Source: an uncultured bacterium (GTDB lineage: Bacteria > UBA8481). From it: a DNA stretch of 64,000 nt. Of the stretch, positions 677 through 34,948 are shown in pieces. A program made the position numbers and the translations under genes. Positions within the stretch are counted from its first letter, which is position 1. Each line of letters opens with the position of its first letter. A model generated the notes under the pieces. It was given only the letters and a program-made list of their open reading frames with translations. It was not told the DNA's origin and did not search any database. The stretch covers positions 1 through 64,000 of the forward strand of contig CAZCME010000015.1 of assembly GCA_964499705.1 (NCBI GenBank), given 5' to 3'.

Positions 677-712
677 ATCGCGCCTCCTCACTATGGGATA
701 TGAGGCGCGGCA

Positions 713-1652: not shown

Positions 1653-1871
1653 TCCGAAGGGAAGCGTGGCACATTGCATTCCGCAATCCCCGCGTCGTTG
1701 TCTCCATTATTCATGATGAAATGTTACCTTCGCCTTGTTTGACCGGAAATCGCGAGCGGGTAGAGGGCTCCAATCCGATCCTTGAGTTACTTTTGCACGG
1801 CAGCTTCGTTTTTCCAAACGATCCACCGGAACCCCGTTGATCGTCAGCCCGGAAAGATACACAATTGTCGG

Positions 1872-11400: not shown

Positions 11401-11717
11401 TGCTCGAGAAGCTTTTTCTGAGGTTCTGAAATGTCAAAGAGTCCGATTAGGTATATTCTTGCGGAGTTAGCGTTACCCAGATTGTCGCGTATCCAACCAA
11501 TCCACCTTAGAAAGTTCGGGTCATCGCCCGAAAAGCCAATCAAGCAAAGAGTGTTTTCCAGTAATGACTGCTGAACAGTGTTAACAAACGCGGCGTAATC
11601 AGTCGGGTATCTGCGGTAATCTTCTTCCGTGACAACGAATGGGCGTTGAGACGGGAAACTGCCGTGAAGCTTGATAATTCGAGGCCTACTTGAGTAAACC
11701 ATGTCTTCTTGATTAAC

Positions 11718-13140: not shown

Positions 13141-13585
13141 TGATTAACGACTACATCGTATCTTCGAGATGGGACGTTGACGGTTGCGCGCTCAAGGAGA
13201 GTATCGTAGTTAGTCGTGAAGACATCGGACCACGGCAACTTCATTAGGCTGACATGAAGTGGCGACGGCTCGTACTCCGTGTCGGGTATTTCGGATCTCA
13301 ATATTTGGTCTAACGCTGGTCTTCCGAAGGCGGCTTGAACTTCATCTGCAAGTTTCAGCAAACTCAAGTAGTGATCAGTGTCTTTAGGAGCTTGCCCGTG
13401 AATCTTCTTATAGAAGATATTTCCTAATTCCGCCCAATCGGGAATCCTCTTGGCGGACGGATCAGCTTTCCTTGCATTTTTGCTAAATCCGGCACCGACC
13501 ATCACTGCCGCATGGCCTGACCACAGCCGCCTTGCTACTTCGTCCAAAAATGGCTCCATTTTGCAAGGGAGAGGTGATGCGTCGT

Positions 13586-15109
13586 TCATTTTCCATCACC
13601 TGAGGCTACCGCAGAATTCTCTAATATCTCAAATAGGCCTCGCATGGATTTTCGCAACTCCTTAGAACTCTTCTGCCAGTCGGCAATGGCCTGATTCAGG
13701 TCGCCGTCGGTGGCGCCGGCCTTGGATTCACCGTTTGACTTGAGCGGCTGGACGTACATAGGAATGCTCAGGTTGCACTTCTTCTCGCGGATCTCGTCAT
13801 TCGTCGCTACTTGAGCGAAGCCTGGAATGTTCGTGAAATCGCGATACGCGGTGACGATACGCTCGATGTGGTCGTTGGTCAGGAAACTCTGCGCGCGCTC
13901 GCGGGTCACTTCGTCCACGGCGTTGATGAAGAGAACCTTGTTGCGCCGCTCCTTTGGTTTACTCCGGCGGCAGACGACGACGCAGGCCTCCATCGGCGAG
14001 TTGTAGAAGAGGTTGGGGCCGAGGCCGAGCACGCACTCGACGACATCGTGCGCCACGAGTTTCTCGCGCATCTCGGACTCTTCGTTCCGGAAGAGGACGC
14101 CGTGCGGGAAGAGAATAGCGCAACGGCCCGTCTTCGGCTTCAGGCTCTGGATGATGTGCTGCCAGAATGCGTAGTCGGCACGGCCCTGGGGCGGAGTGCC
14201 GTAGATGTTGCGGCCCCACGGATCGGCCGACCAGGCGTCACGGTCCCACTGCTTGATTGAATATGGTGGATTCGCCAGGATCAGGTCGAACTGCTGGAGG
14301 CGGTCACCCTCGACGAAGGCCGGATGTGCGAGCGTGTCCGCCCTCGCGATCCGGAAGTCCTGGATGCCGTGCAGGAAGAGATTCATCCGGCCGATCGCCG
14401 ACGTCAGAAGGTTGCGTTCCTGGCCGGAGAGCTTGAGATTCCGCCACTCCTTCTTCCGCCGCTTCAGGTGCGTGACCGCGGAGAGGAGCATGCCTCCGGA
14501 ACCGCAGGTCGGATCGTAGATGGATTCGCCGGGGCGGGGTTCGAGCATCTCGGTCATCAGGTGAACGACCGTGCGATTCGTGTAGAACTCGGCCGCGGTG
14601 TGCCCCGAGTCGTCGGCGAACTTCTTGATGAGAAACTCGTAGCCTACGCCGAGTTCATCCTCCGGGCAGTTCGCGAGCGACAAAGTACGGGAGCTGAAGT
14701 GCTCTACCAGTTCTCTCAGCATCCGGTCAGGCAGACGATCCTTGTTCGTCCACTGAGCGTCGCCGAAGACGCCGAAGAGCGTCTCGGGGTTGGCCTGCTC
14801 GATTGCGCGCAACGCGTCCTGTATCTCCTTGCCGACATTACTGACCTTCGAGCGCGTCGCGCTCCATTGCGCTTCAGGCGGAATCTGGAAGCGGTGCTGT
14901 TCCGGCAGAGCCGCATATTGTTCGTCGCCACCTGATTCTTCAAGTGCGGCGGCCCGCTCCTCGTCGTGCACGTCGCAAAGCCTTTTGTAGAAGAGCAGCG
15001 GGAAGATGAATTGCTTGTAGTCCCCAGCGTCGATGGTTCCCCGTAGTAGCACGGCAGCGCCCCAGAGGTAGGACTCGAGTTCATTCTGTGTGATGCGGGC
15101 TACGCTCAT
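13586..15109 (-). CDS. hsdM: Type I R-M methyltransferase subunit M (NPPY motif; candidate m4C subunit)
   Basis: LESYLWGAA, EFYTNR, YDPTCGSGGML, ANPPY, PHGVLFR; ATGA overlaps with both neighbours. Confidence 0.95.
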   Translation of the reverse strand: MSVARITQNELESYLWGAAVLLRGTIDAGDYKQFIFPLLFYKRLCDVHDEERAAALEESGGDEQYAALPEQHRFQIPPEAQWSATRSKVSNVGKEIQDALRAIEQANPETLFGVFGDAQWTNKDRLPDRMLRELVEHFSSRTLSLANCPEDELGVGYEFLIKKFADDSGHTAAEFYTNRTVVHLMTEMLEPRPGESIYDPTCGSGGMLLSAVTHLKRRKKEWRNLKLSGQERNLLTSAIGRMNLFLHGIQDFRIARADTLAHPAFVEGDRLQQFDLILANPPYSIKQWDRDAWSADPWGRNIYGTPPQGRADYAFWQHIIQSLKPKTGRCAILFPHGVLFRNEESEMREKLVAHDVVECVLGLGPNLFYNSPMEACVVVCRRSKPKERRNKVLFINAVDEVTRERAQSFLTNDHIERIVTAYRDFTNIPGFAQVATNDEIREKKCNLSIPMYVQPLKSNGESKAGATDGDLNQAIADWQKSSKELRKSMRGLFEILENSAVASGDGK

Positions 15110-21012: not shown

Positions 21013-21054
21013 CCTGTGATGGCTACGCTCGTGCACGAGCGTAGCCATCACAGG
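21013..21054. repeat. Perfect 42-bp palindrome with no loop
   Basis: cctgtgatggctacgctcgtg|cacgagcgtagccatcacagg. Confidence 0.95.
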
Positions 21055-21182: not shown

Positions 21183-22964
21183 CTACAGGGCGAGTCTCAG
21201 GCCGAGCAAAGCGACGGTCGAGATGATTCCGATGAAGGTCCGGAGGTCGTTCATGCCTTGTCTGCGGGGTTCGTCGGACTCGACGTAGACGGTCGAGTTG
21301 GCGGGGAGTGTGGGGTTGTCCTGTTTGCCGGAAGTGATTCGGGTGAGATCGTACGTGGTGGCGCGGCCGTCGGGGAATCGGACGCGGATCGCGCTCGTTC
21401 GGGATGTGTTCGTCACGCCGCCGGCGGAGGCGAGGACTTGGGTGAGGGTGCCGGGCTGGAACTGGCCGGGGGTCTTCACGTCGCCGATGACGGTCACGGT
21501 CTGCGGTGTGTCGGCCTGACCTGCGGCGGCAACTGGAAGACGCGGAATGAGCACGCGGTCGCCTTCGCGGAGGTCGGTGTCGGGATCGTGGCCGAGGGCG
21601 ATGTCGCGGGCGTTAACGGTGGCTGTGTCGCCGTGGCCGCGGTCGATTATGACGCTGGTGAGATCGGCACGGGTGTCTGGCTTGGCTTCCCGGACGGCGT
21701 CAGCGACGGTGAAGGCTTCGGTTGTGCCGGGATGTTGCACGGGGCCGTAGACCTGCACGTTGGGGACGAGTGCGCGAGCGCGGATCGGGATTGTGATGCG
21801 GTCGCGGTCGTCCAGTCTGGGGTCGTCAAGTTTTCCGGAGAAGATTGCCTGGACGTTGATGCGCACGGATGTTTCGGCACCTGAGCGGAATTCTACGTTT
21901 TCGAGGTCGGCTTCGGGGATTGGGCCGCCGGCGGCGGAGATGGCTTCGGAGAGAAAGAGCGCGGTGACCCAGTTCGGTTTCGATACGGCGCCGGAGACGA
22001 GGATTCTTGGGAGCGTGGGAACGACGATGATCTCGCCGCCCTGCAGTTCGATGTCGCGTTCGACGCCGGCCATGATTCTGGCGGCGTTGTAGAGCGTGGT
22101 GCTTTCTCCGGAGGTGATGCGGACTTCTGTGGGATTGGCTTCGTATGTGAATCCTTCGGCGGCGGAGATTGCGCCGAGGAGGGTTGTCGCGGGAAACGTG
22201 CCGGACTTCTTTACGGCACCCAGGACGACGGCGTTGCGCTGAATCTTAACCGGGGGTGCGAGGTAGAAGACGGTGACGGGACTGGCGGCGATGCCCTTCG
22301 CGCGGATCGTGGAGTCGAGGTCCGTGGTGGCTATTGCCGCGGTCTTGCTCGCGACACGAAAGACACCGAGGCCGCGGATGAGAATCTCGCCGTCGGGATT
22401 GATCGTGAAATCCTGTGTCTGGTTGCCCACAACAATTCGTATGCGATCACCTGGGGAGAGGACGTGACCGGCTACGGTCACGTCATCGAGGGGCGCGGCT
22501 CGCCGCGCCCCTTCTGCCTCGATTGTTGAGGCGGCGTTTCGAAATGCTGATTCGTCTATCATGGGCGAAAGGTCGACGTAGCGGATCTCCGCATTGCCGT
22601 TGCGGACCATCTCGATGTTTACGTCCTTGTCGCCGTGCATGACGAGTGCCACGGTGCGGCCGTAGCGATCTGTGGAATGCGCTTGATCGATGAGCACGGT
22701 GACGCGCTCGCTGAGGATCATTTGCTTCAGAGCATCCGACGATTCTTCGCCGCCCGGTTCGCCGGTGGGCTTGTTGTGCTCGGGGTGGGCGACCTCGGGC
22801 GCGTTGATTCCGGCGAGGCGGTAATTGATCCCATCTGCGCCCTTGAACGTGTCGCCGTCGTATATGAATTCGACGGCGACCGTTCTTCGCTCAATGTCGG
22901 CTTCGGCGCGAAGGTAGGATGGACTCGATATCTGAGCGATGAGTGCGAGGATGAGAAACGTCAT
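21183..22964 (-). CDS. Thermonuclease (SNase) fused to a Wza/OPX-like protein (Poly_export domain + 4 SLBB/beta-grasp repeats + C-terminal hydrophobic helix)
   Basis: Hydrophobic N-terminus; YDGDTF, RLAGINAPE, DRYGR, NIEMVRNG (SNase); LSPGDRIRIVV...INPDGEILIRGLG (Poly_export); four V.G.V..(P)G repeats. ATG 22964 overlaps the radA-like TGA. Confidence 0.82.
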   Translation of the reverse strand: MTFLILALIAQISSPSYLRAEADIERRTVAVEFIYDGDTFKGADGINYRLAGINAPEVAHPEHNKPTGEPGGEESSDALKQMILSERVTVLIDQAHSTDRYGRTVALVMHGDKDVNIEMVRNGNAEIRYVDLSPMIDESAFRNAASTIEAEGARRAAPLDDVTVAGHVLSPGDRIRIVVGNQTQDFTINPDGEILIRGLGVFRVASKTAAIATTDLDSTIRAKGIAASPVTVFYLAPPVKIQRNAVVLGAVKKSGTFPATTLLGAISAAEGFTYEANPTEVRITSGESTTLYNAARIMAGVERDIELQGGEIIVVPTLPRILVSGAVSKPNWVTALFLSEAISAAGGPIPEADLENVEFRSGAETSVRINVQAIFSGKLDDPRLDDRDRITIPIRARALVPNVQVYGPVQHPGTTEAFTVADAVREAKPDTRADLTSVIIDRGHGDTATVNARDIALGHDPDTDLREGDRVLIPRLPVAAAGQADTPQTVTVIGDVKTPGQFQPGTLTQVLASAGGVTNTSRTSAIRVRFPDGRATTYDLTRITSGKQDNPTLPANSTVYVESDEPRRQGMNDLRTFIGIISTVALLGLRLAL

Positions 22965-24730
22965 TGCAGATTTCTTCTCGCCGGCTCGGTCGCCTTCGAC
23001 GACACGCAGTCGTTCCATACTTTGTGTAGCTGATACGCCTTTCGGATGCCGACGTTGAGCTGCCTTCGGAGAAGGTCGGGCGTGACATCGTGGTGGCGTT
23101 GAACAAGCTCGGCGATGCGCGCAATCAGCGGGTCGATGGGTGGACAAGCTGGGCGAGTGGGCGGTAGTGGGGCAGGCGGAATGATCGCCGGCGGTTCTGG
23201 AATCTGAACGGGTGCGCTTTCTGGCTTCGGTTTCTCCGGTTCGACTGGCGACTTCAATTTCCTGATCCTCTTCGAGTGCTGTTTACGCTTCGTGTCCTTC
23301 TCGAGAGATTTCGCTTTTGCCTCGATGGACTTGGCTTTGGACTGTCGCGTTTCTTTTGGACGACCAGACTCGCTTTGCTCGATTGGGAATTCGATGGCGC
23401 GTAAGGCATCGAGGAGAGTCTTCGCGCGAAACGTCGTGAGCTTCGCGCTCGGGGGGAGCGCGTCGCTGCCGATGTGAGGGACGATGACGTTCTGGATTCC
23501 GAGGATCTCGAGTTCGCGGTAGCGCGAGACGAAGTCGCGCGGCGGTAGAAGTCTTCCGTCGAGCGCTACTTCGCCGATTGCTCCCCAGCTTGTGGGCATG
23601 GGCATGGCTTTGACCGCGTGTGCCGTTGCGATCGCGACGGCGAGATCGGCGGCGGAATCCGAAATCTTGTAGCCGCCCAGGACGGTGAGCGCGATGGTGT
23701 TCGGAGCCTTGATGCCGTATCCGTCGAGGATTGTCTGGATGAGTCGGAGCCGCTCCTTCGGGTAGCCGACCACGGCTTCGGAGAGATCGCCGCGTTGGAG
23801 AAATCCGACCTGAATCTCGGTCGCGATGGGCTTCGTGCCTTCCATCGCGACAGCGATGATGCCCTTCCCGCCGCCTTTCAGAATCTCGGCACCGGGGCTG
23901 GCGACTTCCTCGATGCCGTGCGAGGTCATGCGAAAACTTCCGACCTCCTCCTTCGAGCCGAAGCGATTCTTTTCGACACGGAGGAGGATGAAACCGGGGA
24001 GGGTCATCTCGTCGAGGTGAAAAACGGCATCGTATAGATGCGGGACGGACATGGGGCCGGCGAACTCGCCGGTCTTCACGATCTGGCCGGCGACAAGAAA
24101 TGGTATGCCGGACATTTTCGCGAGCTCGACTATCTTGGCGGAGACTTCTTTGACCTGGGCCGGACTGCCGGGCTCGTTGTTGCAGGATTTCGTGCGCATT
24201 CGCTGAAGCGAGTCAATGATGACGATTACGGCCTTGAGCGCATACATCTCGTGGACGGTTTCCTCGAAACCTTTGTCCGCGAGGATGAATAGTTTGGGAT
24301 CTCGCGCATCGATACGTTTCGATCTCGCCGCGGCTTGCGGGAGCGATTCTTCCGCGGAGACGTAGAGCACGGGGCCGTGCTTCTCGGCGATGCGCGAGGC
24401 GATTTGCATGAGCATGGTGGACTTTCCGACTCCGGGTGCGCCCGTGAAAATGACGGCGGATCCCTCGCAGATGCCTCCTGCCTCGGGCGGTCCGCCGAGA
24501 ACGCGGTCGACCTCGGGGTAACAGGTCGAGATGCGCGGAGGATCTTTGACGTCGGCGTCACTTACCGAGAGCGCCGGCATTCTCGGCGCAACCCGATGCA
24601 TTGTCTGCTCGGACTCCTCGACGCGAATCTCGCTCGGATCGAGCCACTTGCCGCACGCGGGGCAACGGGGGAAGTATTCGGACTCCTGGTGCCCGCAGGA
24701 CGGACAGGAGTAGATGGCGCGGTTGCTCAT
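22961..24730 (-). CDS. radA: RadA/Sms-family ATPase with a Lys/Pro-rich linker and FtsK-gamma-like C-terminal winged helix
   Basis: CPSC...CPAC Zn finger, GAPGVGKST, YVSAEES, IIDSLQ, KNRFG signature, Lon-like ADLAVAIA...GEVALDG; extra tail DPLIARIAELV...LLRRQLNVGIRKAYQL. Confidence 0.85.
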   Translation of the reverse strand: MSNRAIYSCPSCGHQESEYFPRCPACGKWLDPSEIRVEESEQTMHRVAPRMPALSVSDADVKDPPRISTCYPEVDRVLGGPPEAGGICEGSAVIFTGAPGVGKSTMLMQIASRIAEKHGPVLYVSAEESLPQAAARSKRIDARDPKLFILADKGFEETVHEMYALKAVIVIIDSLQRMRTKSCNNEPGSPAQVKEVSAKIVELAKMSGIPFLVAGQIVKTGEFAGPMSVPHLYDAVFHLDEMTLPGFILLRVEKNRFGSKEEVGSFRMTSHGIEEVASPGAEILKGGGKGIIAVAMEGTKPIATEIQVGFLQRGDLSEAVVGYPKERLRLIQTILDGYGIKAPNTIALTVLGGYKISDSAADLAVAIATAHAVKAMPMPTSWGAIGEVALDGRLLPPRDFVSRYRELEILGIQNVIVPHIGSDALPPSAKLTTFRAKTLLDALRAIEFPIEQSESGRPKETRQSKAKSIEAKAKSLEKDTKRKQHSKRIRKLKSPVEPEKPKPESAPVQIPEPPAIIPPAPLPPTRPACPPIDPLIARIAELVQRHHDVTPDLLRRQLNVGIRKAYQLHKVWNDCVSSKATEPARRNLQ

Positions 24731-25818
24731 TCGCTTCCATCGCCTTGTCTGTGCTCCGAGGTTGTGACGGTCAGCTGGCCGTGGAGGACGAAAATGCCGC
24801 GCGAGAAGAGCGCTGCGCGGAACCGCTCCGCAGTGCAGTACGTGATGACGATCTCGTTCGCGTCTTTGCTTCTCGACTTGATCAGGACCGTGGGAAACTC
24901 CTCCGATGCGGCGAGGTAGTTCTCCTCGCGCTGGTCTTCGTCGAGTGGTTCCGTCACGAGAAGCCCGGTGACAATGGCGCTGTCCGGAATTTTGTCAGCG
25001 ATCTCATCCACGAGCAGGTGGTCGATCTCGACGTGGCTCGACTTTCTCGTGATGGGGCGAGCGCGCTCTACGAGGATGCGGTCGAGGGTGACGGACGGTG
25101 ACGACGTGCCGGTCGTGAAGACGGCATCGCCTCTGGCGAAGTAGAGCGTGGACTGCTCCACGGCAACGACACGGAATTTCTCCTCGTAGTCGGTGGGGAG
25201 AAGTGTGTCGCGCCAGGTGCCGCGGATCTTGGCGGTGAGTTCGTAGTCGGGGAAGAAGCGACGGGCCTCGCGGGAGGCGGAATACACGTCGCGCGTGAGA
25301 AGGTAGAAGCTCGAGCGCAAACCCATGACGGAGATCGGCGTAAAAGCGGTCGTGACGAGGAAGAGGAGAGCGCAGAGGATGAACTCGGGGACGCTGCCGA
25401 CGTTGATGCGGTAATCCTCGGACGCGGGAAAGACCCAGCGGGCGCGGTGCGGCCAGAAGAGTGGAACGCCGGGGATATTCGCCATGTCGATCAAGATGTG
25501 CGAGAGAACGCCGAACCATGCGGCGAGGTAGTAGAGAAGGCCCCATCCGATCCAGAGCGGTATGAAGAGGAAGAGACACGCGACTAAAAAGACCCACGAG
25601 TGCGTCACAGTGCGATGGCCGAGTTTTCGCTCGAGGAACTGCGGGATGCCGGTGAAGTAGAAGAGAAATCCGATGGTTGAGCGTGGGTGGTCGATGTCGG
25701 GGAGAAGTGAACCGATCGCGGCAAGAGCGAGCGCGGTGCCGTCCATCTCGAACTCGAAAGACGAGCACGCGAATTCGGCGGTGAGCAGGCCGAAGGGAAT
25801 GTGAGTGATCGAGGTCAT
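24727..25818 (-). CDS. YdjM-like inner-membrane metal-dependent hydrolase with a C-terminal soluble domain
   Basis: TH, GSLLPDIDH, HRTVTHS, SHILID and GVPLFWP motifs with several TM segments. Confidence 0.85.
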   Translation of the reverse strand: MTSITHIPFGLLTAEFACSSFEFEMDGTALALAAIGSLLPDIDHPRSTIGFLFYFTGIPQFLERKLGHRTVTHSWVFLVACLFLFIPLWIGWGLLYYLAAWFGVLSHILIDMANIPGVPLFWPHRARWVFPASEDYRINVGSVPEFILCALLFLVTTAFTPISVMGLRSSFYLLTRDVYSASREARRFFPDYELTAKIRGTWRDTLLPTDYEEKFRVVAVEQSTLYFARGDAVFTTGTSSPSVTLDRILVERARPITRKSSHVEIDHLLVDEIADKIPDSAIVTGLLVTEPLDEDQREENYLAASEEFPTVLIKSRSKDANEIVITYCTAERFRAALFSRGIFVLHGQLTVTTSEHRQGDGSE

Positions 25819-26711
25819 CAGTTACTTCTCGATGTCCGCATCATGAACCAGCGGACGAGGAGCATCATTCCGGAGAGCGCTCCGAAGATGGCGTACATGT
25901 CGAACTGGTACATGCCTCGGTTTATGTAGCGCATGATGATGAGAAATGCGAAGAACGTAAGGATGAGCGGCGCTGCGTCGAAATACGAATTGCCGGACCG
26001 ATGAACGAAGAGTTCACGGATGTAGGACTTGTCGATTCGCTCGGCGCCGCGGAGGCGGTCGGCGGATTCGACGATAGCGCTCGGGACTCCGCTCGAGAGC
26101 GTGGCAATCTGGTTCAGGAGAAAATCCTTCGTGCCCTTGTCGATGGGTTTCACGCCAGGGACGGTCTGTATAACGTGCGCGGCCAAATCGCGCGCGTGCT
26201 GAGGCGAGAGCGGGTTCACGATGACCTCGTCGAAGCGCCAGAAGAGGCGGTTGAATCTTGGATGCCTGTGGCGGTTTCGCGCGGCGGCGATGATCGCGAC
26301 TTTCTCGGCGAGAACCTCGATGACGGGGACCGCGAGGACGGGAAGCTGATCGAATTCGTCGAGGAGGAGAACGACTTTCTTGCCGCTCATCTGCGGGAGC
26401 GCGAGAATTTCAGCGATCATGTGGCCGAGTTCCACTATTCGTGTGGCGTGTCCGACCTTCCGCGGCTTTGAGACGCCGGCGGTGATGCAGAGCCAGGAGT
26501 AGATCGAGTCGATGATCTCCTTTGCGGGCACGGGACGGCGAACGTAGTGAATCGCTGTGTCGGTCTTCTTGATCTTGCGCTGAAGGTCGAGGAGGAGATG
26601 GGTCTTGCCGATACCGTTTCTTCCAATGAGCAAGGTGTGGTGCCCCTGCATGGTGTTCCGGAGCAAAGTCTCGATCTCGTTATCGCGACCGATGGTGGCA
26701 TCGAGGATCAC
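25818..26711 (-). CDS. AAA+/P-loop ATPase with two C-terminal transmembrane helices
   Basis: IGRDNE, GRNGIGKT Walker A, LLLDEFD Walker B, SSGVP; hydrophobic tail. Confidence 0.8.
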   Translation of the reverse strand: MILDATIGRDNEIETLLRNTMQGHHTLLIGRNGIGKTHLLLDLQRKIKKTDTAIHYVRRPVPAKEIIDSIYSWLCITAGVSKPRKVGHATRIVELGHMIAEILALPQMSGKKVVLLLDEFDQLPVLAVPVIEVLAEKVAIIAAARNRHRHPRFNRLFWRFDEVIVNPLSPQHARDLAAHVIQTVPGVKPIDKGTKDFLLNQIATLSSGVPSAIVESADRLRGAERIDKSYIRELFVHRSGNSYFDAAPLILTFFAFLIIMRYINRGMYQFDMYAIFGALSGMMLLVRWFMMRTSRSN

Positions 26712-27730
26712 GAGTCGCTCTTTGGTGAGGTGCCGACGGATACCGTGAAGTACGCGGCGGGTTTGCCGGGCTCGTGGACGTAGATCGGGATCGAGTAGAA
26801 ATCCTGTGGCTTGGTGAAGACGACTTCGAATGTGACCGTGTCGCCCTGGCGAAGGTCCTGACCGAGGACGAGGACGTTGGCCTGCACGTATCGATACTGC
26901 GTACCTTCCTTGTCGGTGCGGGAGACGGGGCGGAGGAGAAATCCGTCGACGCGCACTTCGACGGATTTCTGCGAGGTGACGGTGAGCAAGTGGGTGGCGG
27001 GGTTGTACGTTGCCGCGATACCCGGTGGCGCGGGTTCAGCGGTGGATGCTCCGGACTGTGCGACGGCAGCAACTCCATGCGTGGTCCCCGCCACCCGCTC
27101 GCTTCCACCGACGGTGCCGGAAGTTCCGGCCCCCTGGAAAGAGCGCGTGGCGCGTTTGGTCTGACCGTCTTCGATCCACTCGAACTGAACCGAAAAGTTG
27201 TCGGCGGGAAGTTCGATGGTTTGGTTTGGGGCGAGAGTGCCGATCAGGCGATAACGCGGCTTCGTCACCTCGAGATTGATCGCGGGCACGTCGCCGGCAT
27301 TCGTGAGCTTGCCGTTTTGCACGACGATGAGCGGGCGACCGTTGTTCTGGCTTGCACCGGGCATAAGCGTCGTGAGGTCGATCTCGCTTCGCGCGACATG
27401 GGCGGTGATGATCGCGGCGAGGAAGATCGTGGCGGCGATGACGGTGACGCGGATCGGAGGCGCGGATGTGGCGGCGCGAGTGAGTTTCGCTGTCCACACA
27501 CACACGGATTTCGCGAGCACGCGTAAAAATCTCGTAATTAATGAGTCCGGAACTGGTGCGGCATGAGTTACGAGCGGTATGGAATAGGGCGTCTTGACGG
27601 TCGACCTGCGCGCTTCACGGAATTCCGGATCATCGAGTGGAATCTCAACGACAGAGACTGCGCGTGCGTGGGGCGTGCCGGATGAGCGCACGCTCGTGGC
27701 GACGCGCTGGCCGTAGATCATTCGACTCAT
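26708..27730 (-). CDS. Single-pass membrane protein of unknown function with beta-rich extracytoplasmic domains
   Basis: TM segment VTVIAATIFLAAIITAHVA; ATGA/GTGA overlaps with both neighbours. Confidence 0.7.
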   Translation of the reverse strand: MSRMIYGQRVATSVRSSGTPHARAVSVVEIPLDDPEFREARRSTVKTPYSIPLVTHAAPVPDSLITRFLRVLAKSVCVWTAKLTRAATSAPPIRVTVIAATIFLAAIITAHVARSEIDLTTLMPGASQNNGRPLIVVQNGKLTNAGDVPAINLEVTKPRYRLIGTLAPNQTIELPADNFSVQFEWIEDGQTKRATRSFQGAGTSGTVGGSERVAGTTHGVAAVAQSGASTAEPAPPGIAATYNPATHLLTVTSQKSVEVRVDGFLLRPVSRTDKEGTQYRYVQANVLVLGQDLRQGDTVTFEVVFTKPQDFYSIPIYVHEPGKPAAYFTVSVGTSPKSDS

Positions 27731-28380
27731 GGTGTGAGTCGATTCGCGCGGAGCACTTCGATCACGTCTCGCCATGCCGCATCGGCTGATTTACCATCCG
27801 CGCCGGCGACGGCGACCGTGAGTCCTATGTCGATCGGCTTGCCGTTTCCGGGCGTGACGAGACAGACGGATTTGGCGATTCTGTCGGAGATCTCCGCGGC
27901 ACTCTCCGTGTCCGAATTGCGGAGTATAAGACCGAAGATGCCAGGATCGATACGGGCGAGGTCATCGCCTGTTCGTATGGCCGAGAGAAGCGAGGCCGCG
28001 AGATTCTTCACGACGATGTCTCCTCGCTGCGCGCCGAATCGAATGTAGATCCCCTCAATGTCGAATGCGAACGCGGCGATGCTGATGAAGAAGCGATGGC
28101 TCGCGGTTGCGATCTCGGCGGCCAGACGGTGGAAGAAGAATGCTCGACTTTTTGTCTGCGTGAGCGGGTCGATTGCATTCTCGCGGCGGATGTTCTCGAC
28201 GATGGGACGGAATATGCGAGTGAGGTCGATGTTGCGCCGGGGATCGGCGAGAATCGCGGCGTCAAACGCTACGCCGAGGCACTCCGGGCAGATGAAGACG
28301 ATGAGTTCTCCCGCTTCCACGACGCGCGCGTCAGTGACCGCGCCGCACGAGAGCGGGCATGTATGACGAAGAAGGCTCAT
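27727..28380 (-). CDS. Zn-finger plus degenerate GGDEF-domain protein (I-site retained)
   Basis: CPLSC...CPEC; DPLT, FDIE, G...GD; RTGD I-site followed by DLARIDPGIF in place of GGDEF. Confidence 0.8.
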   Translation of the reverse strand: MSLLRHTCPLSCGAVTDARVVEAGELIVFICPECLGVAFDAAILADPRRNIDLTRIFRPIVENIRRENAIDPLTQTKSRAFFFHRLAAEIATASHRFFISIAAFAFDIEGIYIRFGAQRGDIVVKNLAASLLSAIRTGDDLARIDPGIFGLILRNSDTESAAEISDRIAKSVCLVTPGNGKPIDIGLTVAVAGADGKSADAAWRDVIEVLRANRLTP

Positions 28381-28664
28381 TGAAGAACCATCCCGACGAT
28401 CCAATTATCTGTGAGGGGCGACCGTTTTCGATGTAGCCGGACGATTACAGCGCCGTGTGTCTCGCCGTGAAGGGTAAGCGAGATCGGCGCGCGTAGATCT
28501 TCGACAGTCCATGACAGGAACGCGGGATCATGGATTCGGACAGCGCAATTTGTCGCGGAGAAATCGAGGAGATTGCCTTTGCACCGCTTGTCGCCGCGCG
28601 TGAGTTTTACGAGCGCGAGCGATGATGTCCTCATCCGCACGGAGACGCGATCGCGGCGGATCAT
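28377..28664 (-). CDS. PilZ-like small protein (divergent motifs)
   Basis: 95 aa; N-terminal RRDRVSV, GNLLDFSATNCAVRI (DxSxxG-like with N), AVIVR and terminal WIVGMVL follow the PilZ barrel pattern; ATGA-coupled on both sides. Confidence 0.55.
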   Translation of the reverse strand: MIRRDRVSVRMRTSSLALVKLTRGDKRCKGNLLDFSATNCAVRIHDPAFLSWTVEDLRAPISLTLHGETHGAVIVRLHRKRSPLTDNWIVGMVLQ

Positions 28665-29287
28665 CCGTCCCTCCTGCGCCAGTCGGGGGCGCTCCAGGTG
28701 AGCCGAAGGCCTTCGCAAAGTCGCGAGAGGGCGCGGGGATACCGTTCCTCGAAGGCGGCCATGTCGAGATTTGTGGCGATGAGCGTGGGGAGCCGCCGGC
28801 GGTATCGCTGATCGAGGATTCGGTCGGCGAGTTCGCGCGTCCAGTCGGACCGACCCTCGGCCCCGAGGTCGTCGAGGATGAGGAGGTGCTGATACTCGCC
28901 AAGGTTGGGCACGATGGCGCCGTGGTCTGAGATCGCGTTACGGTGCCGTTCGACGAGGTCCGGATGATACCAGTACCAGACCTCCTTTCCGGACTCGATC
29001 CAGCTCGTTGCAAAGGCGAGGAGGGCGTGGGTCTTTCCTGAACCGAAGTTCGTTTTGCCTCGGTCTGAGTGGAGAAAGGCACTCCACTCCGCGAATCTCC
29101 ACGTCCGGAGCATCGGTGTCTGCTCGCGGAGTTCGAGAATCTCCTGCCACGTCGCCCAGGTGCAATTCTCGCGGCCGGCCTGCGCGGCGAGTCGGTCGAG
29201 CAGGCATTGCTTGCACCGTCGGACAGACTCACGTCCCTGCGGATCCTTGGTGTAGAGCCAGCCGCTCATGCATCCGTGTTCGGTCAT
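28661..29287 (-). CDS. DnaC/IstB-like ATPase (helicase loader)
   Basis: N-terminal Cys/His, FGSGKTHA, LLILDDLGAE, RYRRRLPTLIATN; GGAGG RBS; follows the replication initiator. Confidence 0.85.
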   Translation of the reverse strand: MTEHGCMSGWLYTKDPQGRESVRRCKQCLLDRLAAQAGRENCTWATWQEILELREQTPMLRTWRFAEWSAFLHSDRGKTNFGSGKTHALLAFATSWIESGKEVWYWYHPDLVERHRNAISDHGAIVPNLGEYQHLLILDDLGAEGRSDWTRELADRILDQRYRRRLPTLIATNLDMAAFEERYPRALSRLCEGLRLTWSAPDWRRRDG

Positions 29288-30291
29288 GATTTCCTCCTCG
29301 TCGATGGATGCGGGAAGGTCTTGAGGACCGCCCCTGATTCGATGTCGTATTGCTCGCGCATGAGCTGGCCGTCGATGAGCCGGTCGCGGATGTCGGTCTT
29401 TCTCTGAGGGGCCGATGGCGCGGCGCATTCTCTCCGACCGCTTCTCGTCGAACTCGGCCTGCCGCTGTCCTGTTGAGTCGTGAGCCAGCTCGTGACGAAG
29501 CGGCCGATGCCCGCGGCGGTCTTCCGGCGTTTCGGGTTGCCGATGAGCCACGCGCGCATTTTGCCAAGCTCGTGTCGAACATCGACGCCGGGGAAGGCTT
29601 TCTCCATCTCGGTGATGAAGTCTTCGGTGACAGGCGCTTCCTTGTCGCTTGTCAGCGGGAGCATCACGACGATTTCGCCGGTGCATTGTGTAGCGGGCTT
29701 GACTCCTCCATGTCGCTTCAGTTTTGCCACTTGTGCAACCGGCTTGGAGGAATCGCCACTCGTCGGCGATCCCTCCGAGCTACCAGATTCCTGCTCCTGT
29801 TCTTGCTCCTGCTCCTGCTCTTTAACCCCCTCAGGTGCGGGTGACCTCGTTTCGACACGTGGGGGGACAGGTGTCGGGGAGTAGGATTCGAAGATCCCGT
29901 GCAGGTGCCGGGACAGGTGCGCTGTATTGGCGAAGAAGTGGCTGAGGAGATGCGTCGATGGCAGGTCGTGGAGGTCGTTCAGGCAGTTCTTGAAGACGCT
30001 GGGGTTCTCCGGCGCGTTGTACTTCCACCAGGTGGGGATGTAGAGGACGCGGAGTTGGTTGTCGAAGCGCCATTCGAAGGTCCGGCAGACCTTGTCGAAG
30101 AAGAGGAGGAAGACGTTCGGCTCGAGGTTCAGGTCCTCGGCAGCGAGTGCGGGAGAAAAGTTGAAGAGGCCGATGCGATTGGATTGCGCGGTGAAGGCGT
30201 AGATCGCGACCAGCTTTTCGATGTGATCCAGCTTGCGGATGTTCTCGTCACGCCACATTCGGGGATCGATCTTTCGGTATCGCTGAGCCAT
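29284..30291 (-). CDS. Phage-type replication initiator protein
   Basis: MAQRYRKIDPRMWRD N-terminus, WWKYN, EQEQEQEQE linker, C-terminal ELGKMRAWL..NP.RRKT..GI.RF..SWL domain; directly upstream of the DnaC-like gene. Confidence 0.8.
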   Translation of the reverse strand: MAQRYRKIDPRMWRDENIRKLDHIEKLVAIYAFTAQSNRIGLFNFSPALAAEDLNLEPNVFLLFFDKVCRTFEWRFDNQLRVLYIPTWWKYNAPENPSVFKNCLNDLHDLPSTHLLSHFFANTAHLSRHLHGIFESYSPTPVPPRVETRSPAPEGVKEQEQEQEQEQESGSSEGSPTSGDSSKPVAQVAKLKRHGGVKPATQCTGEIVVMLPLTSDKEAPVTEDFITEMEKAFPGVDVRHELGKMRAWLIGNPKRRKTAAGIGRFVTSWLTTQQDSGRPSSTRSGRRECAAPSAPQRKTDIRDRLIDGQLMREQYDIESGAVLKTFPHPSTRRKS

Positions 30292-30292
30292 C

Positions 30293-31060
30293 TCAGTGGT
30301 CCGGCTTCGCCACGACGCGCTTTGCGCGTTCTTCGTCCGTGAGGTCGCCGGCGTAAACGGATGTCGCGCGGCCACGATCCTTCGCGGCGTAGAGCGCGGC
30401 ATCGGCGAGATCGAAAATGCGGTCGTGGAGTTCGATGGCGTCGTCAGGAGGAGTCTCGCCGAAGTCGGGCGGATACGAGGAGATGCCGCATGAAACATTG
30501 ATGCTGCTCTTCAGAGATCGACCCGTGATCGCGTGGAATTGGTATTCGGACGTTTCCTTCACGATGCGCTCGGCAATGGCTTTGGCGCCGACGACATCGG
30601 TCTCGGGGAGGATGAGGCCAAACTCGTCGCCTCCGACGCGGGCGGCGCAATCGCTCTTACGGGTGAAGTGCGCGAGGAGTTCTCCGAACTCCTTCAAGAC
30701 GAAATCACCGGTTGCGTGGCCGAAATCGTCGTTTGCGGCCTTGAAGCCATCGAGGTCCATGAGGACGAGCGAGAGAAAGTGCGAGCCTTTCGCGCGAGCG
30801 AGCTCGGCGGTGAGTTGCCGATCGAAGAACTTGCGATTGCCGAGGCCTGTGAGTTTGTCGATGTACGCGCCCTTCTCGATCTGGCGGATGCGGCCGAGGA
30901 GTGTGGTCATGAACTGATCCGCGGGCATTCCGCGCTCGGCGACGATGCCGATGACGGCCTGCGACGGAAGCCAGATTCCGAGGCATGTCTGGCAGATGTC
31001 GAAGTTGACGGACGCGATCTTCTGCGTCTCGATCGGCACACGACAGCAGGGACAGTCCAT
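30293..31060 (-). CDS. zf-TFIIB-like Zn finger plus diguanylate cyclase (intact GGDEF)
   Basis: CPCC...DICQTCLGIWL; DKLTGLGNR, DLDGFK.AND.FGH.TGD, RKSD I-site, ARVGGDEF, ADAALYAAK. Start at 31060 or 31111. Confidence 0.92.
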   Translation of the reverse strand: MDCPCCRVPIETQKIASVNFDICQTCLGIWLPSQAVIGIVAERGMPADQFMTTLLGRIRQIEKGAYIDKLTGLGNRKFFDRQLTAELARAKGSHFLSLVLMDLDGFKAANDDFGHATGDFVLKEFGELLAHFTRKSDCAARVGGDEFGLILPETDVVGAKAIAERIVKETSEYQFHAITGRSLKSSINVSCGISSYPPDFGETPPDDAIELHDRIFDLADAALYAAKDRGRATSVYAGDLTDEERAKRVVAKPDH

Positions 31061-31070
31061 CAGACGCGTT

Positions 31071-31433
31071 TCACTTCGCTGGCGGCGTTTCGGTTTCATC
31101 GTGTGATCCATTTCGTTCGGCGACCAGTTTTTCGACGACGGCGCCGACCTTCTCGCGGATGTCGGAGGCCTGAAGGACCTGACCGCCGCGGAGCTCGTTC
31201 ACCTTGTCGCGGAGGTAGAAGTGCGCGAGAACCAGGTCCCGGTCTTTACTGTCCCATGCGTACGGATCGGCCTCGACGTATGCGTCATCGTCGATCGCGA
31301 TCATGTAGAGACCTTCCGTAGTGATGCCGACATCGGCGGTGCGATCGTCGGCGAGTTTTGCAAAGTTGATCGGGATGAGCGCGACGAGATAGTGGCGATC
31401 GCCGGTCTCGAGGCGGAAGTGTTTTACGCGCAT
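31071..31433 (-). CDS. Hypothetical protein (120 aa)
   Basis: Protein-like ORF that fills its slot in the operon. Confidence 0.65.
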   Translation of the reverse strand: MRVKHFRLETGDRHYLVALIPINFAKLADDRTADVGITTEGLYMIAIDDDAYVEADPYAWDSKDRDLVLAHFYLRDKVNELRGGQVLQASDIREKVGAVVEKLVAERNGSHDETETPPAK

Positions 31434-32197: not shown

Positions 32198-32370
32198 TTG
32201 GCCGCCTCCGTCTGGAATTCGACTTCACGGGCAAGACGGAGGAGGCGAGCCCACGCCCAGAGGCAATCGGGGGAGGAGGAGTAGACGACGCCTTTGGGCA
32301 ATGTCGGTTGGGAAGCGGCGTCATTCCGGACATCGGCGGCTCGGTCCGTGTTGGGCTGATCGTCAAGCAT
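32194..32370 (-). CDS. Hypothetical protein (58 aa)
   Basis: ATG 32370 with AGGAG RBS, overlapping the cro-like stop. Confidence 0.55.
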   Translation of the reverse strand: MLDDQPNTDRAADVRNDAASQPTLPKGVVYSSSPDCLWAWARLLRLAREVEFQTEAAK

Positions 32371-32653
32371 CGCGTCTCCTTCGCGCCTGCGGACGATCAC
32401 GGCGGGGGAGATTTGGCCGTGCGCTGGATTGCTCGGACCAGCGGCAACCCGCTTCGGTGAACATTCGGGGGAATAGAACGTAGGGAGGCACACCGAGAGC
32501 TTTGGCGATGCGAAGTGCGGTAGCCGGTCTGGTATGGGCGCGAGCTTCAATCCTGGCAATTCCACCGCGAGTGAGGCCCACGCGGCGTGCCAGTTCCCCA
32601 AGCGACCATCCCTTGGCGAGGCGGATTTCTTTCAGTGGTTCTTTCAGTTCCAT
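32363..32653 (-). CDS. Cro-like XRE helix-turn-helix regulator
   Basis: LKEIRLAKGWSLGELARRVGLTRGGIARIE...IAKALGV; first gene of the long operon. Confidence 0.85.
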   Translation of the reverse strand: MELKEPLKEIRLAKGWSLGELARRVGLTRGGIARIEARAHTRPATALRIAKALGVPPYVLFPRMFTEAGCRWSEQSSARPNLPRRDRPQARRRRDA

Positions 32654-32762
32654 ATCAATTATGAATGACAGATATGAACTACAAATTAGCATTCTGTCAA
32701 CATTAGATTTCATACGCGTTATTTGTGTTGACAAACGTTGACAAACCGCTACATTTCCACTC
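32654..32762. promoter_or_regulatory. Divergent promoter/operator region of the switch
   Basis: AT-rich; TTGACA on the minus strand (32695-32700) and twice on the plus strand (32728, 32738, in a tandem GTTGACAAAC repeat); TACATT at 32750-32755, 7 nt before the ATG. Confidence 0.7.
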
Positions 32763-33158
32763 ATGAAAGTCATCGAGTTTCTCAAGCAGACGTTAAAGGA
32801 CTGTGACAAGCCTCAATACGAGGTGTGCAATAGCGTGAACGTCGCGCAATCGACGCTCAGCCATGTGATGCGCGGGCGCAGCGATCCCAGACTGGACACC
32901 TTTGTGAAGCTTGGTGGTCCGCTCGGCTACGAGGTGCAGGTCGTCACAAGGAAGGCGGCCTTCATGCTCGGGATCAAGGGAGGCAAGGCGGATCTTGTCG
33001 AAGAAAATAGCAGGCGCAAGGAAACTCGATTGGAACGGCTCGCGACCTTCTACTCACGGCGATTATCTCCCCTGGAGCTCGAAGGCTTGTGCGAGGAGCT
33101 GGAGATGCGCGCAGATCACATCGACAAACAAAAAAAGCGCGTCGCGAAAGCGAGCTAA
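32763..33158 (+). CDS. XRE-family HTH repressor (CI-like, no peptidase domain)
   Basis: QYEVCNSVNVAQSTLSHVMRGRSDPRLDTFVKL; divergent from the cro-like gene and upstream of the integrase. Confidence 0.8.
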   Translation: MKVIEFLKQTLKDCDKPQYEVCNSVNVAQSTLSHVMRGRSDPRLDTFVKLGGPLGYEVQVVTRKAAFMLGIKGGKADLVEENSRRKETRLERLATFYSRRLSPLELEGLCEELEMRADHIDKQKKRVAKAS

Positions 33159-33323: not shown

Positions 33324-34907
33324 ATGAATAAGAAATCAGAGGAGAACGCGGAAGGCGTTATTATGCCGCCCGAACGTCGCGCCATCATCTACTGTCGCGT
33401 CTCGACGGAAGAGCAGGCCAAGGGCGGCATCTCGATCGAGATGCAGATGGAAAAATTGCACCACCTTGCGAAAGTTCACGACCTCACTGTCACCGAAACC
33501 ATCTGTGACGCCGGCGTCTCAGCGAAAAACCTCCATCGCAAGGGAGTCGAGAAAGCGCTTGAACTTGTGCGCGAAGGCCATGTCTCGCATCTCCTCATCT
33601 ATAAGCTGGATCGCCTCTCGCGTTCCATTCGAGATATCGGCGTGCTCATCGACCTCTTTCAAGAAAAGGGAGTGGCTCTCATCTCAGCAACCGAAAGTAT
33701 CGACACTGCTTCGCCAATGGGGCGGATGATCTGCAACATCCTCGGGTCGTTTGCGCAATTCGAACGTGAACTTATCGCGGAGCGGACGCGTGATGCTATG
33801 GAGCAACTTTGGAAGGCCGGTCGCTGGACAACGCGCGCTCCATTCGGATACATCTTCGATGATAATCGCCGGCTACTCCCGCATCCGGAGCAGGCTCCAC
33901 TGGTGCGCGAGCTATTCGAGCGAACGGCCGATGAACGACTGACGACGAGAGACGCATTTCACTCGGTTATCGACGACAGCCGCTACACTGCGGCGCGAAA
34001 GTGGAACAAGTCTGGTGTTTACTTCGTCCTGACATCTCGCGTTTACCTGGGCGAGGTGAAGCGAGGCAAGAAGTGGGGGCGCGGGATGCACGACGGTATC
34101 ATCGACGCCGAACTCTTTGATCGTGTTCAGGGTCAGCTCAGCGCGCGCAACAATATCGGGACGATTACGCGCGGACTCTCCGCGAATGTGCTGGCGGGTA
34201 TCGCGGTGTGCGGGCATTGCGGCCGGAAGCTAATCGCACGAACCGGGCGCAGGAAAGGTTCGAAGACCGACAAGGATCGTCAGACCGCGCGCTACGCTTA
34301 TTACGTCTGCCCAAGTTCTGCGGATCGAAAAGACTGCGTGCTTGCGCCGGTTCCAGCACCTGCAATCGAGGAGGCGATCTTCTCCGAGATGGCGAGCATC
34401 GGGCAGAACCGGGCCTTGGTGGCTGCCATCGTTCGTGATGCTGAAACGTTGCTCGAGACCAGAACTCGCGGCGAACGGGTCGAGATCAAGACGGCGCGCC
34501 GGCGACTCACGCTTCTCGAGAAGAAAGTTCGCGTCGTCATGGATCACCTTTCGGAGATTCCTCCGAGTGATCCGCGCGCCAAGGAATTCACGACCGAGCT
34601 CGATCGGTTGAGCGCGGAGAAGGACTTGGTGAGCAACCGCGTCAGCGAGATCGAGGCACAGCTCTTCACGAAGCGCCGCGACCGGATGAACGTGGATCTG
34701 CTGGTCTCCCTGCTGATGTATCCCAGGCTCTACCTGCCGAAGCTGAACGGGAAAGACCTGCGTGAGGTCATGAAGGGGATCATCCACAAAGCGACGATCT
34801 GGAGCCGTGAGGAGATCGAAATCGAGGTCGCCGTGCCCGCAGGCTCGCGCGGGGTTATGATGGCGTCCAATGGAGCGTCCCCAACGGGATTCGAACCCGT
34901 GTTTTAG
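33324..34907 (+). CDS. Large serine recombinase (integrase)
   Basis: IYCRVSTEEQ catalytic Ser, KLDRLSR, FAQFERELIAERT, APFGY, CGHCG Zn ribbon, coiled coil; GGAGG RBS; last codons read antisense through the tRNA. Confidence 0.95.
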   Translation: MNKKSEENAEGVIMPPERRAIIYCRVSTEEQAKGGISIEMQMEKLHHLAKVHDLTVTETICDAGVSAKNLHRKGVEKALELVREGHVSHLLIYKLDRLSRSIRDIGVLIDLFQEKGVALISATESIDTASPMGRMICNILGSFAQFERELIAERTRDAMEQLWKAGRWTTRAPFGYIFDDNRRLLPHPEQAPLVRELFERTADERLTTRDAFHSVIDDSRYTAARKWNKSGVYFVLTSRVYLGEVKRGKKWGRGMHDGIIDAELFDRVQGQLSARNNIGTITRGLSANVLAGIAVCGHCGRKLIARTGRRKGSKTDKDRQTARYAYYVCPSSADRKDCVLAPVPAPAIEEAIFSEMASIGQNRALVAAIVRDAETLLETRTRGERVEIKTARRRLTLLEKKVRVVMDHLSEIPPSDPRAKEFTTELDRLSAEKDLVSNRVSEIEAQLFTKRRDRMNVDLLVSLLMYPRLYLPKLNGKDLREVMKGIIHKATIWSREEIEIEVAVPAGSRGVMMASNGASPTGFEPVF

Positions 34908-34948
34908 CCTTGAAAGGGCCATGTCCTGGGCCTCTGGACGATGGGGAC
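34876..34948 (-). tRNA. tRNA-Glu (anticodon TTC); CCA not contiguous
   Basis: GTCCCCATCGTCCAGAGGCCCAGGACATGGCCCTTTCAAGGCTAAAACACGGGTTCGAATCCCGTTGGGGACG: 7-bp acceptor stem, CTTTCAA loop, GTTCGAATC T-loop. Confidence 0.95.

Follow-up and report, generated by a model that had tools for sequence, protein, structure and literature searches.

Why would an integrated element of an uncultured bacterium carry a RadA/Sms protein of its own, and why would that protein end in a tail resembling the gamma domain of FtsK? The question is raised by a gene of a bacterium of the lineage UBA8481 (NCBI GenBank assembly GCA_964499705.1), located within the first 64,000 nucleotides of contig CAZCME010000015.1; this whole stretch is called the window hereafter, and all positions refer to it unless another genome is named. 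The gene (22961..24730, minus strand, stop codon included) encodes a RadA/Sms paralogue of 589 amino acids with a C-terminal helix-turn-helix (HTH), which we call P0001. The usual view of RadA/Sms is that of a housekeeping helicase for recombination, present in a single copy. What we describe here is a distinct, element-borne RadA lineage which appears to bear the DNA-guiding module of another motor family and whose gene shares an operon with those of envelope proteins, of a nuclease domain and of cyclic di-GMP (c-di-GMP) enzymes.

The first step is to establish what kind of motor P0001 is. A preliminary description of this DNA had spoken of a full RadA, and this is borne out by the NCBIfam RadA/sms profile TIGR00416, which matches residues 4-442 with its positions 5-453 of 454 (E 1.6e-83), i.e., end to end. 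From the N-terminus, and all on the minus strand, the protein presents a C4 zinc-finger motif read from the translation (CPSC...CPAC, residues 9-26, 24653..24706), a Walker A motif (GAPGVGKS, residues 97-104, 24419..24442), a KNRFG motif (residues 254-258, 23957..23971) and a Lon-like P domain (approximately residues 290-442, 23405..23863). When P0001 was aligned with the host RadA and three other canonical RadAs, the C4 motif, Walker A from G97 to T105 (G97, P99, G100, G102 and K103 being invariant), the Walker B residue D173 and K254-N-R-F-G258 fell in invariant columns, with K254, N255, R256 and G258 shared with the canonical proteins; across the clade to which P0001 belongs, the conservation of C9, C12, C23 and C26 is 90% or more. 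Pfam returned generic RecA-fold matches (AAA_25, E 7.7e-11; DnaB_C, E 2.4e-9), a weak zinc-ribbon match (Zn_ribbon_LapB, E 7.1e-4) and, in the P domain, a weak match to ChlI (E 1.9e-4, residues 355-419); a LonB profile also matched weakly there (E 0.0054). Judging by these motifs, P0001 is a complete RadA-type protein whose catalytic motifs are intact. A study on RadA (PMC5512693) describes KNRFG as a RadA-specific motif and RadA itself as a hexameric helicase of the DnaB type, whose P ring admits only single-stranded DNA (ssDNA) and leads in 5'-3' movement; the same text states that RadA needs the C4 finger to interact with RecA and to be loaded by it.

P0001 is nevertheless set apart from the RadA of its host. 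On TIGR00416 it reaches 281 bits, below the curated cut-off of 403.05 which the profile asks of an equivalog, whereas a second, canonical RadA, encoded on contig C2 of the same assembly (4.67 Mb, 45 contigs, 96% complete), scores 471.3 bits. A search of 5.8 billion proteins returned eleven relatives (P0002-P0012) at 42-68% identity, followed by canonical RadAs at no more than 37% (best 120 of 5169 matches); the identity of P0001 to canonical RadAs is around 33-35%. We then built a quick maximum-likelihood tree from the 12 clade members, the host RadA and 37 canonical RadAs, taken as every third of the 109 listed, rooted at the midpoint without an outgroup. In this tree the 12-member clade splits from the 38 canonical RadAs, the host's included, with a support of 100% in the Shimodaira-Hasegawa-like approximate likelihood ratio test (SH-aLRT), and the eight tail-bearing proteins form one subclade with 95% SH-aLRT. 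By identity and by tree topology, P0001 is thus a paralogue belonging to a rare, distinct clade and not an orthologue of chromosomal RadA: the phylogeny proposed as a check in the preliminary description does not nest it in host RadA, and its extension is conserved. The clade counts 13 cluster representatives found so far, nine of them with the tail, and the paralogue is present in two of the five genomes of the phylum, this assembly (G000) and a genome of the same family (G003). In plasmid and phage collections, tblastn gave canonical RadA only (111 plasmid and 31 phage records), with all matches below 60% identity (31-36% in the rows listed) and none spanning 80% of the query.

The RadA part is continued by a Lys/Pro-rich linker, delimited by composition and alignment at residues 446-530 (23141..23395, minus strand), which opens with a conserved GRPKETR..KA.S motif. 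Its presence had been noticed before, but its length is 85 residues instead of the ~75 then given; it contains 13 Lys, 6 Arg and 17 Pro, and among homologues the linker extends from ~85 to ~210 residues. Behind it, profiles and a structural model place a predicted wingless HTH of the FtsK-gamma type at residues 531-579 (22994..23140, minus strand; helices 534-546, 551-558 and 562-579), of which residues 533-568 read DPLIARIAELVQRHHDVTPDLLRRQLNVGIRKAYQL. The tail is kept in 8 of the 12 aligned clade members, where D533, L542, R555, R556, L558 and A565 are invariant, and is found at 48% core identity in P0160, a RadA-like protein of 730 residues, behind a linker of ~200 residues. We considered whether the tail might belong to a gene apart or come from an error of reading frame, and rejected this, as nine homologues encode it within one open reading frame (ORF). 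The clade members devoid of tail end in Lys/Arg-rich sequences (20 to 33 Lys and Arg in their last 100 residues), and these basic ends fit a DNA-tethering role for the whole extension.

Is the tail really kin to FtsK gamma? The search with the Ftsk_gamma profile that had been suggested gives a mixed answer: FtsK_gamma (PF09397) is the sole Pfam family found when the P0001 tail is scanned alone, but with an E value of 0.051 and 13.7 bits, and the scores of this tail on the profile (13.7-16 bits) lie under the gathering score of 30.6. When each tail is scanned by itself, FtsK_gamma is found in six of the eight, always with a score under the cut-off (best E 1.8e-4), and no other Pfam family is matched by more than one of the eight. 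More sensitive evidence came from hhalign, used to compare the alignment of the eight tails with an alignment of 30 FtsK gamma domains from kin genomes. The two profiles matched with a probability of 94.5% and a score of 38.9 over 44 ungapped columns, corresponding to gamma positions 2-45 of 62. Control families from the same genomes stayed far lower (HTH_24, 18.8%, score 19.4; Sigma70_r4, 1.7%); shuffling the columns of the tail alignment 100 times gave at most 10.1% (score 18.1). One has to keep in mind that gamma against HTH_24 itself reaches 89% (score 31.2), i.e., that winged-helix families cross-match; the tail scores above that value against gamma. On this profile comparison the tail is related to FtsK gamma, and the gap-free alignment, initially drawn by eye, goes beyond chance.

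The converse search, with the tail profile against 1.84 billion representatives, gave eight matches at E<=1e-3. Three of them, P0161, P0162 and P0163, clear the Pfam FtsK_gamma cut-off (48.2, 35.3 and 45.2 bits, respectively); the others are P0007, a fragment of 55 residues, P0160 and two that are probably spurious. P0162 and P0163 are small proteins presenting two tandem wingless gamma-like HTHs flanked by His-rich or Lys-rich low-complexity segments, and one stretch in this set closely resembles VTPDLLRRQLNVG of the RadA tail.

The structure predicted for the tail refines this picture. The AlphaFold2 (AF2) model of its 64 residues has a mean predicted local distance difference test value (pLDDT) of 72, with 80-86 in the core, and consists of three helices (9-21, 26-33 and 37-54 in the numbering of the model) and no strand. 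The gamma matches to the tail end at profile position 39-45 of 62-63, before the wing, and the sequence beyond helix 3 is unconserved. In FtsK gamma, the wing contacts DNA. The model superimposes on the gamma domain 2ve9_A with a root-mean-square deviation (rmsd) of 1.8 Å over 43 columns, and rank 2 of the VIA search is the FtsK gamma chain 5dcf_A from a gamma-XerD structure (Z 4.9, rmsd 1.9 Å over 44 residues). In the ESM Atlas, queried with residues 526-589, six of the seven structure rows are clusters bearing FtsK_gamma (TM score by query 0.60-0.68), with a feature score for the tail of just 0.77, to be taken as a lead only. In E. coli FtsK, residues R1300, E1303 and E1306 contribute to the recognition of the FtsK-orienting polar sequences (KOPS), according to PMC2680272. 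We placed these residues on the gamma alignment by their presumed R-x2-[DE]-x2-E spacing; they face Q567, K570 and N573 of P0001, in columns that vary among the eight tails. Because no strand is predicted, because the gamma matches stop before the wing and because the KOPS-reading positions are unconserved, we regard the tail as a wingless gamma-type HTH and not as a KOPS reader. The winged helix and the KOPS-like reading implied in the preliminary description are therefore not supported.

The genes around P0001 are equally informative. From 31111 down to 21183 every gene lies on the minus strand, the last five ORFs overlap by 1-4 nucleotides, and both junctions flanking the RadA-HTH gene are ATGA overlaps. 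Immediately downstream, a Wza-like exporter (Poly_export and SLBB) with an N-terminal SNase domain (21183..22964) has its ATG at 22964 overlapping the RadA stop codon. Immediately upstream, the gene at 24727..25818, whose stop codon overlaps the RadA start, encodes a membrane hydrolase of the YdjM/DUF457 type with a beta-rich domain fused at its C-terminus (the YdjM fusion). Still further upstream are a P-loop ATPase (AAA_22/AAA_16, 25818..26711) with a hydrophobic C-terminal end in which two transmembrane (TM) segments were judged by eye; a bitopic protein of 355 residues from no known family (26708..27775, start uncertain), which has a single hydrophobic segment and is otherwise beta-rich; and, at 27727..28404, a Zn-ribbon protein whose GGDEF domain is degenerate, with DPGIF replacing GGDEF and RxxD kept. 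Then come a DnaC/DnaI-like AAA+ helicase loader of 208 residues (28661..29287; phrog_50, E 6.5e-23; DnaI, E 3.5e-14), a DnaD-like protein (29284..30498, start uncertain; phrog_1701, E 4e-17) and a Zn-ribbon diguanylate cyclase of 272 residues with both GGDEF and RxxD intact (30293..31111). From their motifs, the two Zn-ribbon GGDEF paralogues of this operon look like a cyclase and receptor pair. The earlier observation that a loader is present while no DnaB is visible holds: besides the loader and DnaD-like genes of the operon, the assembly has one DnaB_C match above the RadA level, on contig C17. Pfam found no FtsK domain in P0001 either, the sole FtsK_SpoIIIE match over the cut-off in the assembly being on C2.

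Some of the partners were characterized further. The model of the YdjM fusion (pLDDT 73) shows conserved His and Asp in the membrane part, and its residues 169-257 resemble the sugar-binding domain of TrmB (Z 9.8, rmsd 2.8 Å over 87 residues); Foldseek returned weak MscS-like rows only (TM score ~0.15). A complex prediction for the RadA core with the YdjM fusion, run without controls, scored 0.00. The ESM Atlas returned nothing for the 355-residue protein. Compared with PADLOC 2.0, the operon proteins fit no system model; apart from one to an SNase, the matches stay at the level of the P-loop (mad8, E 2.3e-7, residues 89-152).

The same module was found a second time. In G003 the gene order is the same, with 29-69% identity between orthologues, all eight operon ORFs abut or overlap, and the degenerate GGDEF protein is absent. 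The DnaD-like protein stands at 29% identity to its G003 orthologue and the Wza-like exporter at 68%, the latter lacking the SNase domain in G003. In this second genome the operon adjoins a tyrosine integrase and a Gp3-like protein, encoded at L021 7989-9392 on the plus strand, between integrase and operon; it has 467 residues with a Gp3-like 'recombination directionality factor-like' domain, and no counterpart was seen in the window. The family of the YdjM fusion matches the RadA-like clade in its small size, with 20 proteins at E<=1e-10. For seven YdjM-fusion clusters the longest contig is equal in size to that of a RadA-like cluster, including those of the tail-less P0011 and P0012, and we took equal-sized contigs to be, presumably, one and the same. 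No further locus was confirmed in genome or metagenome contigs with P0001, P0002 and two other queries. A search for homologues of the DnaC-like protein was rejected as evidence on co-occurrence of the loader, as it missed both known copies, in the window and in G003. What is observed is that the tightest linkage of RadA-HTH is with the membrane and envelope genes, not with the loader.

The operon is carried on an integrative element, an integrase lying beside it in both genomes, and the description of P0001 as element-encoded thus stands. In the window, upstream of the operon lie a divergent pair of XRE-type HTH genes (32363-32809, minus strand, and 32763-33158, plus strand; HTH_3, E 2.9e-12 and 1e-4), a large serine recombinase (33324..34907, plus strand) and a tRNA-Glu gene (34875..34948, minus strand) marking where the element ends. 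At its 3' end, the recombinase ORF overlaps this tRNA gene, which is on the opposite strand; no direct repeat of the region was found elsewhere in the assembly. On the downstream side the operon adjoins AbiE, GmrSD, type I restriction-modification (R-M) and Dsr2 genes. At the contig start, an ArdC-like anti-restriction gene (2-691, minus strand; ArdcN, E 1.5e-31, with a zincin-like peptidase) is truncated by the edge of the contig, and this ArdC match is the only one in the assembly and in the five genomes of the phylum. Searches of the assembly for VirB4, AAA_10 (over the cut-off), type IV coupling protein (T4CP) and two relaxase families gave no match, the element running off the contig, and VirB4 is absent from all five genomes of the phylum. 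The type IV secretion system (T4SS) and relaxase-type genes of such elements often go unassembled.

Several other observations were made in the window. A perfect palindrome of 42 bp (21013-21054, arms of 21 nucleotides, no spacer) separates the end of the Wza-like gene from AbiEi; it may serve as a terminator or as a site for protein binding, and its arm does not occur elsewhere in the assembly. The Dsr2-like gene lies inside a type I R-M cluster with two tandem hsdM genes (8430-13589, minus strand) and is split: an ORF of 187 residues corresponds to Dsr2 positions 6-148 and one of 1526 residues to positions 142-1220, the match starting at its residue 428, so that ~427 N-terminal residues of the latter are unexplained. 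The island also contains an ORF of 846 residues (1782-4322, plus strand) having no Pfam or NCBIfam match and a weak Csx1-like match in PADLOC (E 0.0022), while an ORF of 3124 residues (43827-53201, minus strand) lies outside the element.

What, then, could this protein do? The reading we favour, tentatively and with a confidence somewhat short of an even chance, is that P0001 acts in the cytoplasm as the DNA motor of a module, carried by integrative elements and associated with the envelope, which handles DNA. We ranked it first because of the translational coupling of the gene to membrane and envelope genes. Going by its family, P0001 would form a hexameric ring of superfamily 4 (SF4, DnaB type) moving on ssDNA with ATP. 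The flexible basic, proline-rich linker would hang a three-helix HTH off each P domain, i.e., six per hexamer, and the tails, at the leading face of the ring, could bind duplex DNA jointly, like three gamma domains on one KOPS, and so dock or orient the ring on the DNA of the element. According to PMC3384302, one KOPS is read by three of the six gamma domains of FtsK, a lone gamma being a poor binder. Since the tail has no wing and does not keep the KOPS-reading residues, its target would be a sequence of the element's own, or its binding would be largely non-specific. The motor would work with the bitopic protein, the TM-anchored ATPase, the YdjM fusion and the Wza-like exporter, and the module, probably under c-di-GMP control, could export, import or destroy DNA.

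A number of points weigh against this proposal. The hexamer, the helicase activity and the DNA binding by the tail are all inferred. The sequence search of the PDB with the tail profile gave no FtsK gamma, the best match being an AraC-type HTH (E 0.03), and Foldseek gave no match to the tail at E<=0.001 (best E 1.1). The fold searches do not separate the tail from homeodomains or Lrp-type HTHs, the listed VIA rows (Z 4.0-5.0) being tied within 1 Z. Synteny at the DNA level is seen in two loci of one bacterial family, the rest coming through the equal-sized contigs. No clt-, iteron- or KOPS-like array was found, only 3-copy 8-mer clusters, mostly inside genes. Finally, the DnaD-like and DnaC-like genes of the operon fit a replication role, and the conserved C4 finger, which RadA needs for its loading by RecA, fits a role in recombination.

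These last two points lead to the alternatives. If the DnaD-like and DnaC/DnaI-like proteins loaded the ring at an origin, with the tail as the origin-binding domain, P0001 would be the replicative helicase or initiator-helicase of the element. Both genes lie upstream in the same strand run at both loci, the eight ORFs of G003 all abut or overlap, and a DnaB_C match above the RadA level is seen on another contig only. Moreover, an integrase and an XRE pair precede the operon, which thus occupies the place where replication genes are usually found. RadA also has the DnaB helicase fold (PMC5512693); the same text, however, has its P ring admitting only ssDNA and RadA devoid of the primase-binding collar of DnaB. 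What renders this explanation unlikely in our opinion is that three membrane-protein genes separate the loader from the helicase and that an envelope exporter is coupled to its stop codon, none of which a replisome helicase needs; iteron-like repeats were not found either, and DnaC-like loaders on elements commonly recruit the DnaB of the host. The same C4 finger conservation, with all RadA motifs intact, would suit a recombination helper which, loaded by RecA (the finger being needed for the RecA interaction, PMC5512693), carries out branch migration and is directed by its tail to element DNA, e.g., for recombination-dependent replication or repair. A canonical RadA is already present in the host, however, and the conserved coupling to membrane and envelope genes would be left unexplained, so that this role appears very doubtful to us.

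The neighbourhood suggests instead that the five to eight genes could be an anti-phage or anti-plasmid defence, in which an envelope complex senses or meets the incoming DNA, a GGDEF enzyme signals, and the motor, SNase and YdjM proteins attack DNA or the cell. The operon indeed abuts the island of AbiE, GmrSD, type I R-M and Dsr2, brings together a cyclase, a GGDEF that is degenerate and resembles a receptor, and domains of nucleases and hydrolases, and has a patchy distribution (two of the five genomes of the phylum). Yet PADLOC fits nothing beyond P-loop-level matches, the DnaD-like and DnaC-like genes lie inside the operon, the SNase is absent from G003, and at both loci the operon sits in the core, close to the integrase, and not in the position of cargo; we consider a defence function improbable. 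It is also conceivable, with a probability we judge lower still, that the five coupled genes constitute a new DNA conduit across the diderm envelope, into which the RadA ring would feed element DNA after the gamma-like tails find their site, thereby allowing transfer without a T4SS. The ArdC-like gene and the missing VirB4, T4CP and relaxase matches in the assembly count slightly in favour of this proposal; that the element runs off the contig counts against it. Another view concerns the tail only and could be combined with any of the four roles of envelope-associated motor, replicative helicase, recombination helper and defence: the tail would be a protein-contact module coupling the motor to a recombinase or another partner. 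FtsK gamma activates XerD by direct contact (PMC5052618), the gamma-XerD chain 5dcf stands at VIA rank 2, and the wing and KOPS-reading residues are missing. Nonetheless, the recombinases of the two elements are unrelated (serine in the window, tyrosine in G003), and the tail-less relatives have plain basic tails in its place, pointing to DNA binding; such a contact role is hardly probable.

If loading is directed by the tail, FtsK's solution of a 'guide domain on a hexameric motor' would have arisen anew on an SF4 helicase. A module that moves DNA through the envelope, if that is its activity, would constitute a new way of transferring genes or taking up DNA, in a phylum of which little has been sampled. 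Among the papers listed by full-text searches outside subscription journals, none was found to describe a RadA-gamma fusion, the two that contain both terms being unrelated by title, and a DNA-handling machine driven by RadA-HTH together with membrane and envelope genes may be previously undescribed. As P0001 is soluble and its tail small, testing in vitro would be easy.

How does this protein compare with known systems? With RadA/Sms it shares, end to end, the C4 finger, the RecA-like ATPase with Walker A/B and KNRFG, and the Lon-like P domain; it differs by its low profile score, its separate clade, the added linker and HTH, its location on an element and its coupling to membrane genes. With the gamma domain of FtsK/SpoIIIE (PF09397) the tail shares the three-helix core, aligned without gaps over positions 2-45, and the C-terminal position on a flexible linker of a hexameric motor. 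It departs from gamma by the absence of a wing, by Pfam scores below the cut-off and by unconserved R1300/E1303/E1306 positions. The motors differ too: FtsK is a pump of double-stranded DNA with an alpha/beta motor, whereas that of P0001 is of the RadA type, an SF4 ssDNA helicase. DnaB, with its DnaC/DnaI loader, has the SF4 fold in common with P0001, whose operon has a DnaC/DnaI-like AAA+ gene; unlike DnaB, which has an N-terminal primase-binding collar, P0001 has no collar and presents a P domain and a zinc finger (cf. PMC5512693).

If transfer is the function, TraB is the closest analogue. TraB/Tra of Streptomyces plasmids and of actinomycete integrative and conjugative elements (AICEs) is likewise a hexameric motor on an integrative element, and recognises a cis site, clt (PMC3429521). 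TraB differs in being an FtsK homologue, itself membrane-bound, which acts alone in monoderm mycelia, and no clt-like repeat array was found on the element of P0001. For the recruitment of gamma, the parallel is with the Bacillus phages Sam46 and Sam112. There, according to PMC8190038, gamma domains, including stand-alone phage ones, are full (E ~2e-27) and close to host FtsK, whereas that of P0001 is divergent and wingless. ParB-gamma fusions and stand-alone gamma clusters are also seen in the ESM Atlas. The small terminase of Sam46 and Sam112 nevertheless has an N-terminal FtsK_gamma (same source), and thus provides, like the tail of P0001 if our reading holds, a case of gamma recruited on a mobile genome to a DNA-translocating machine other than FtsK.

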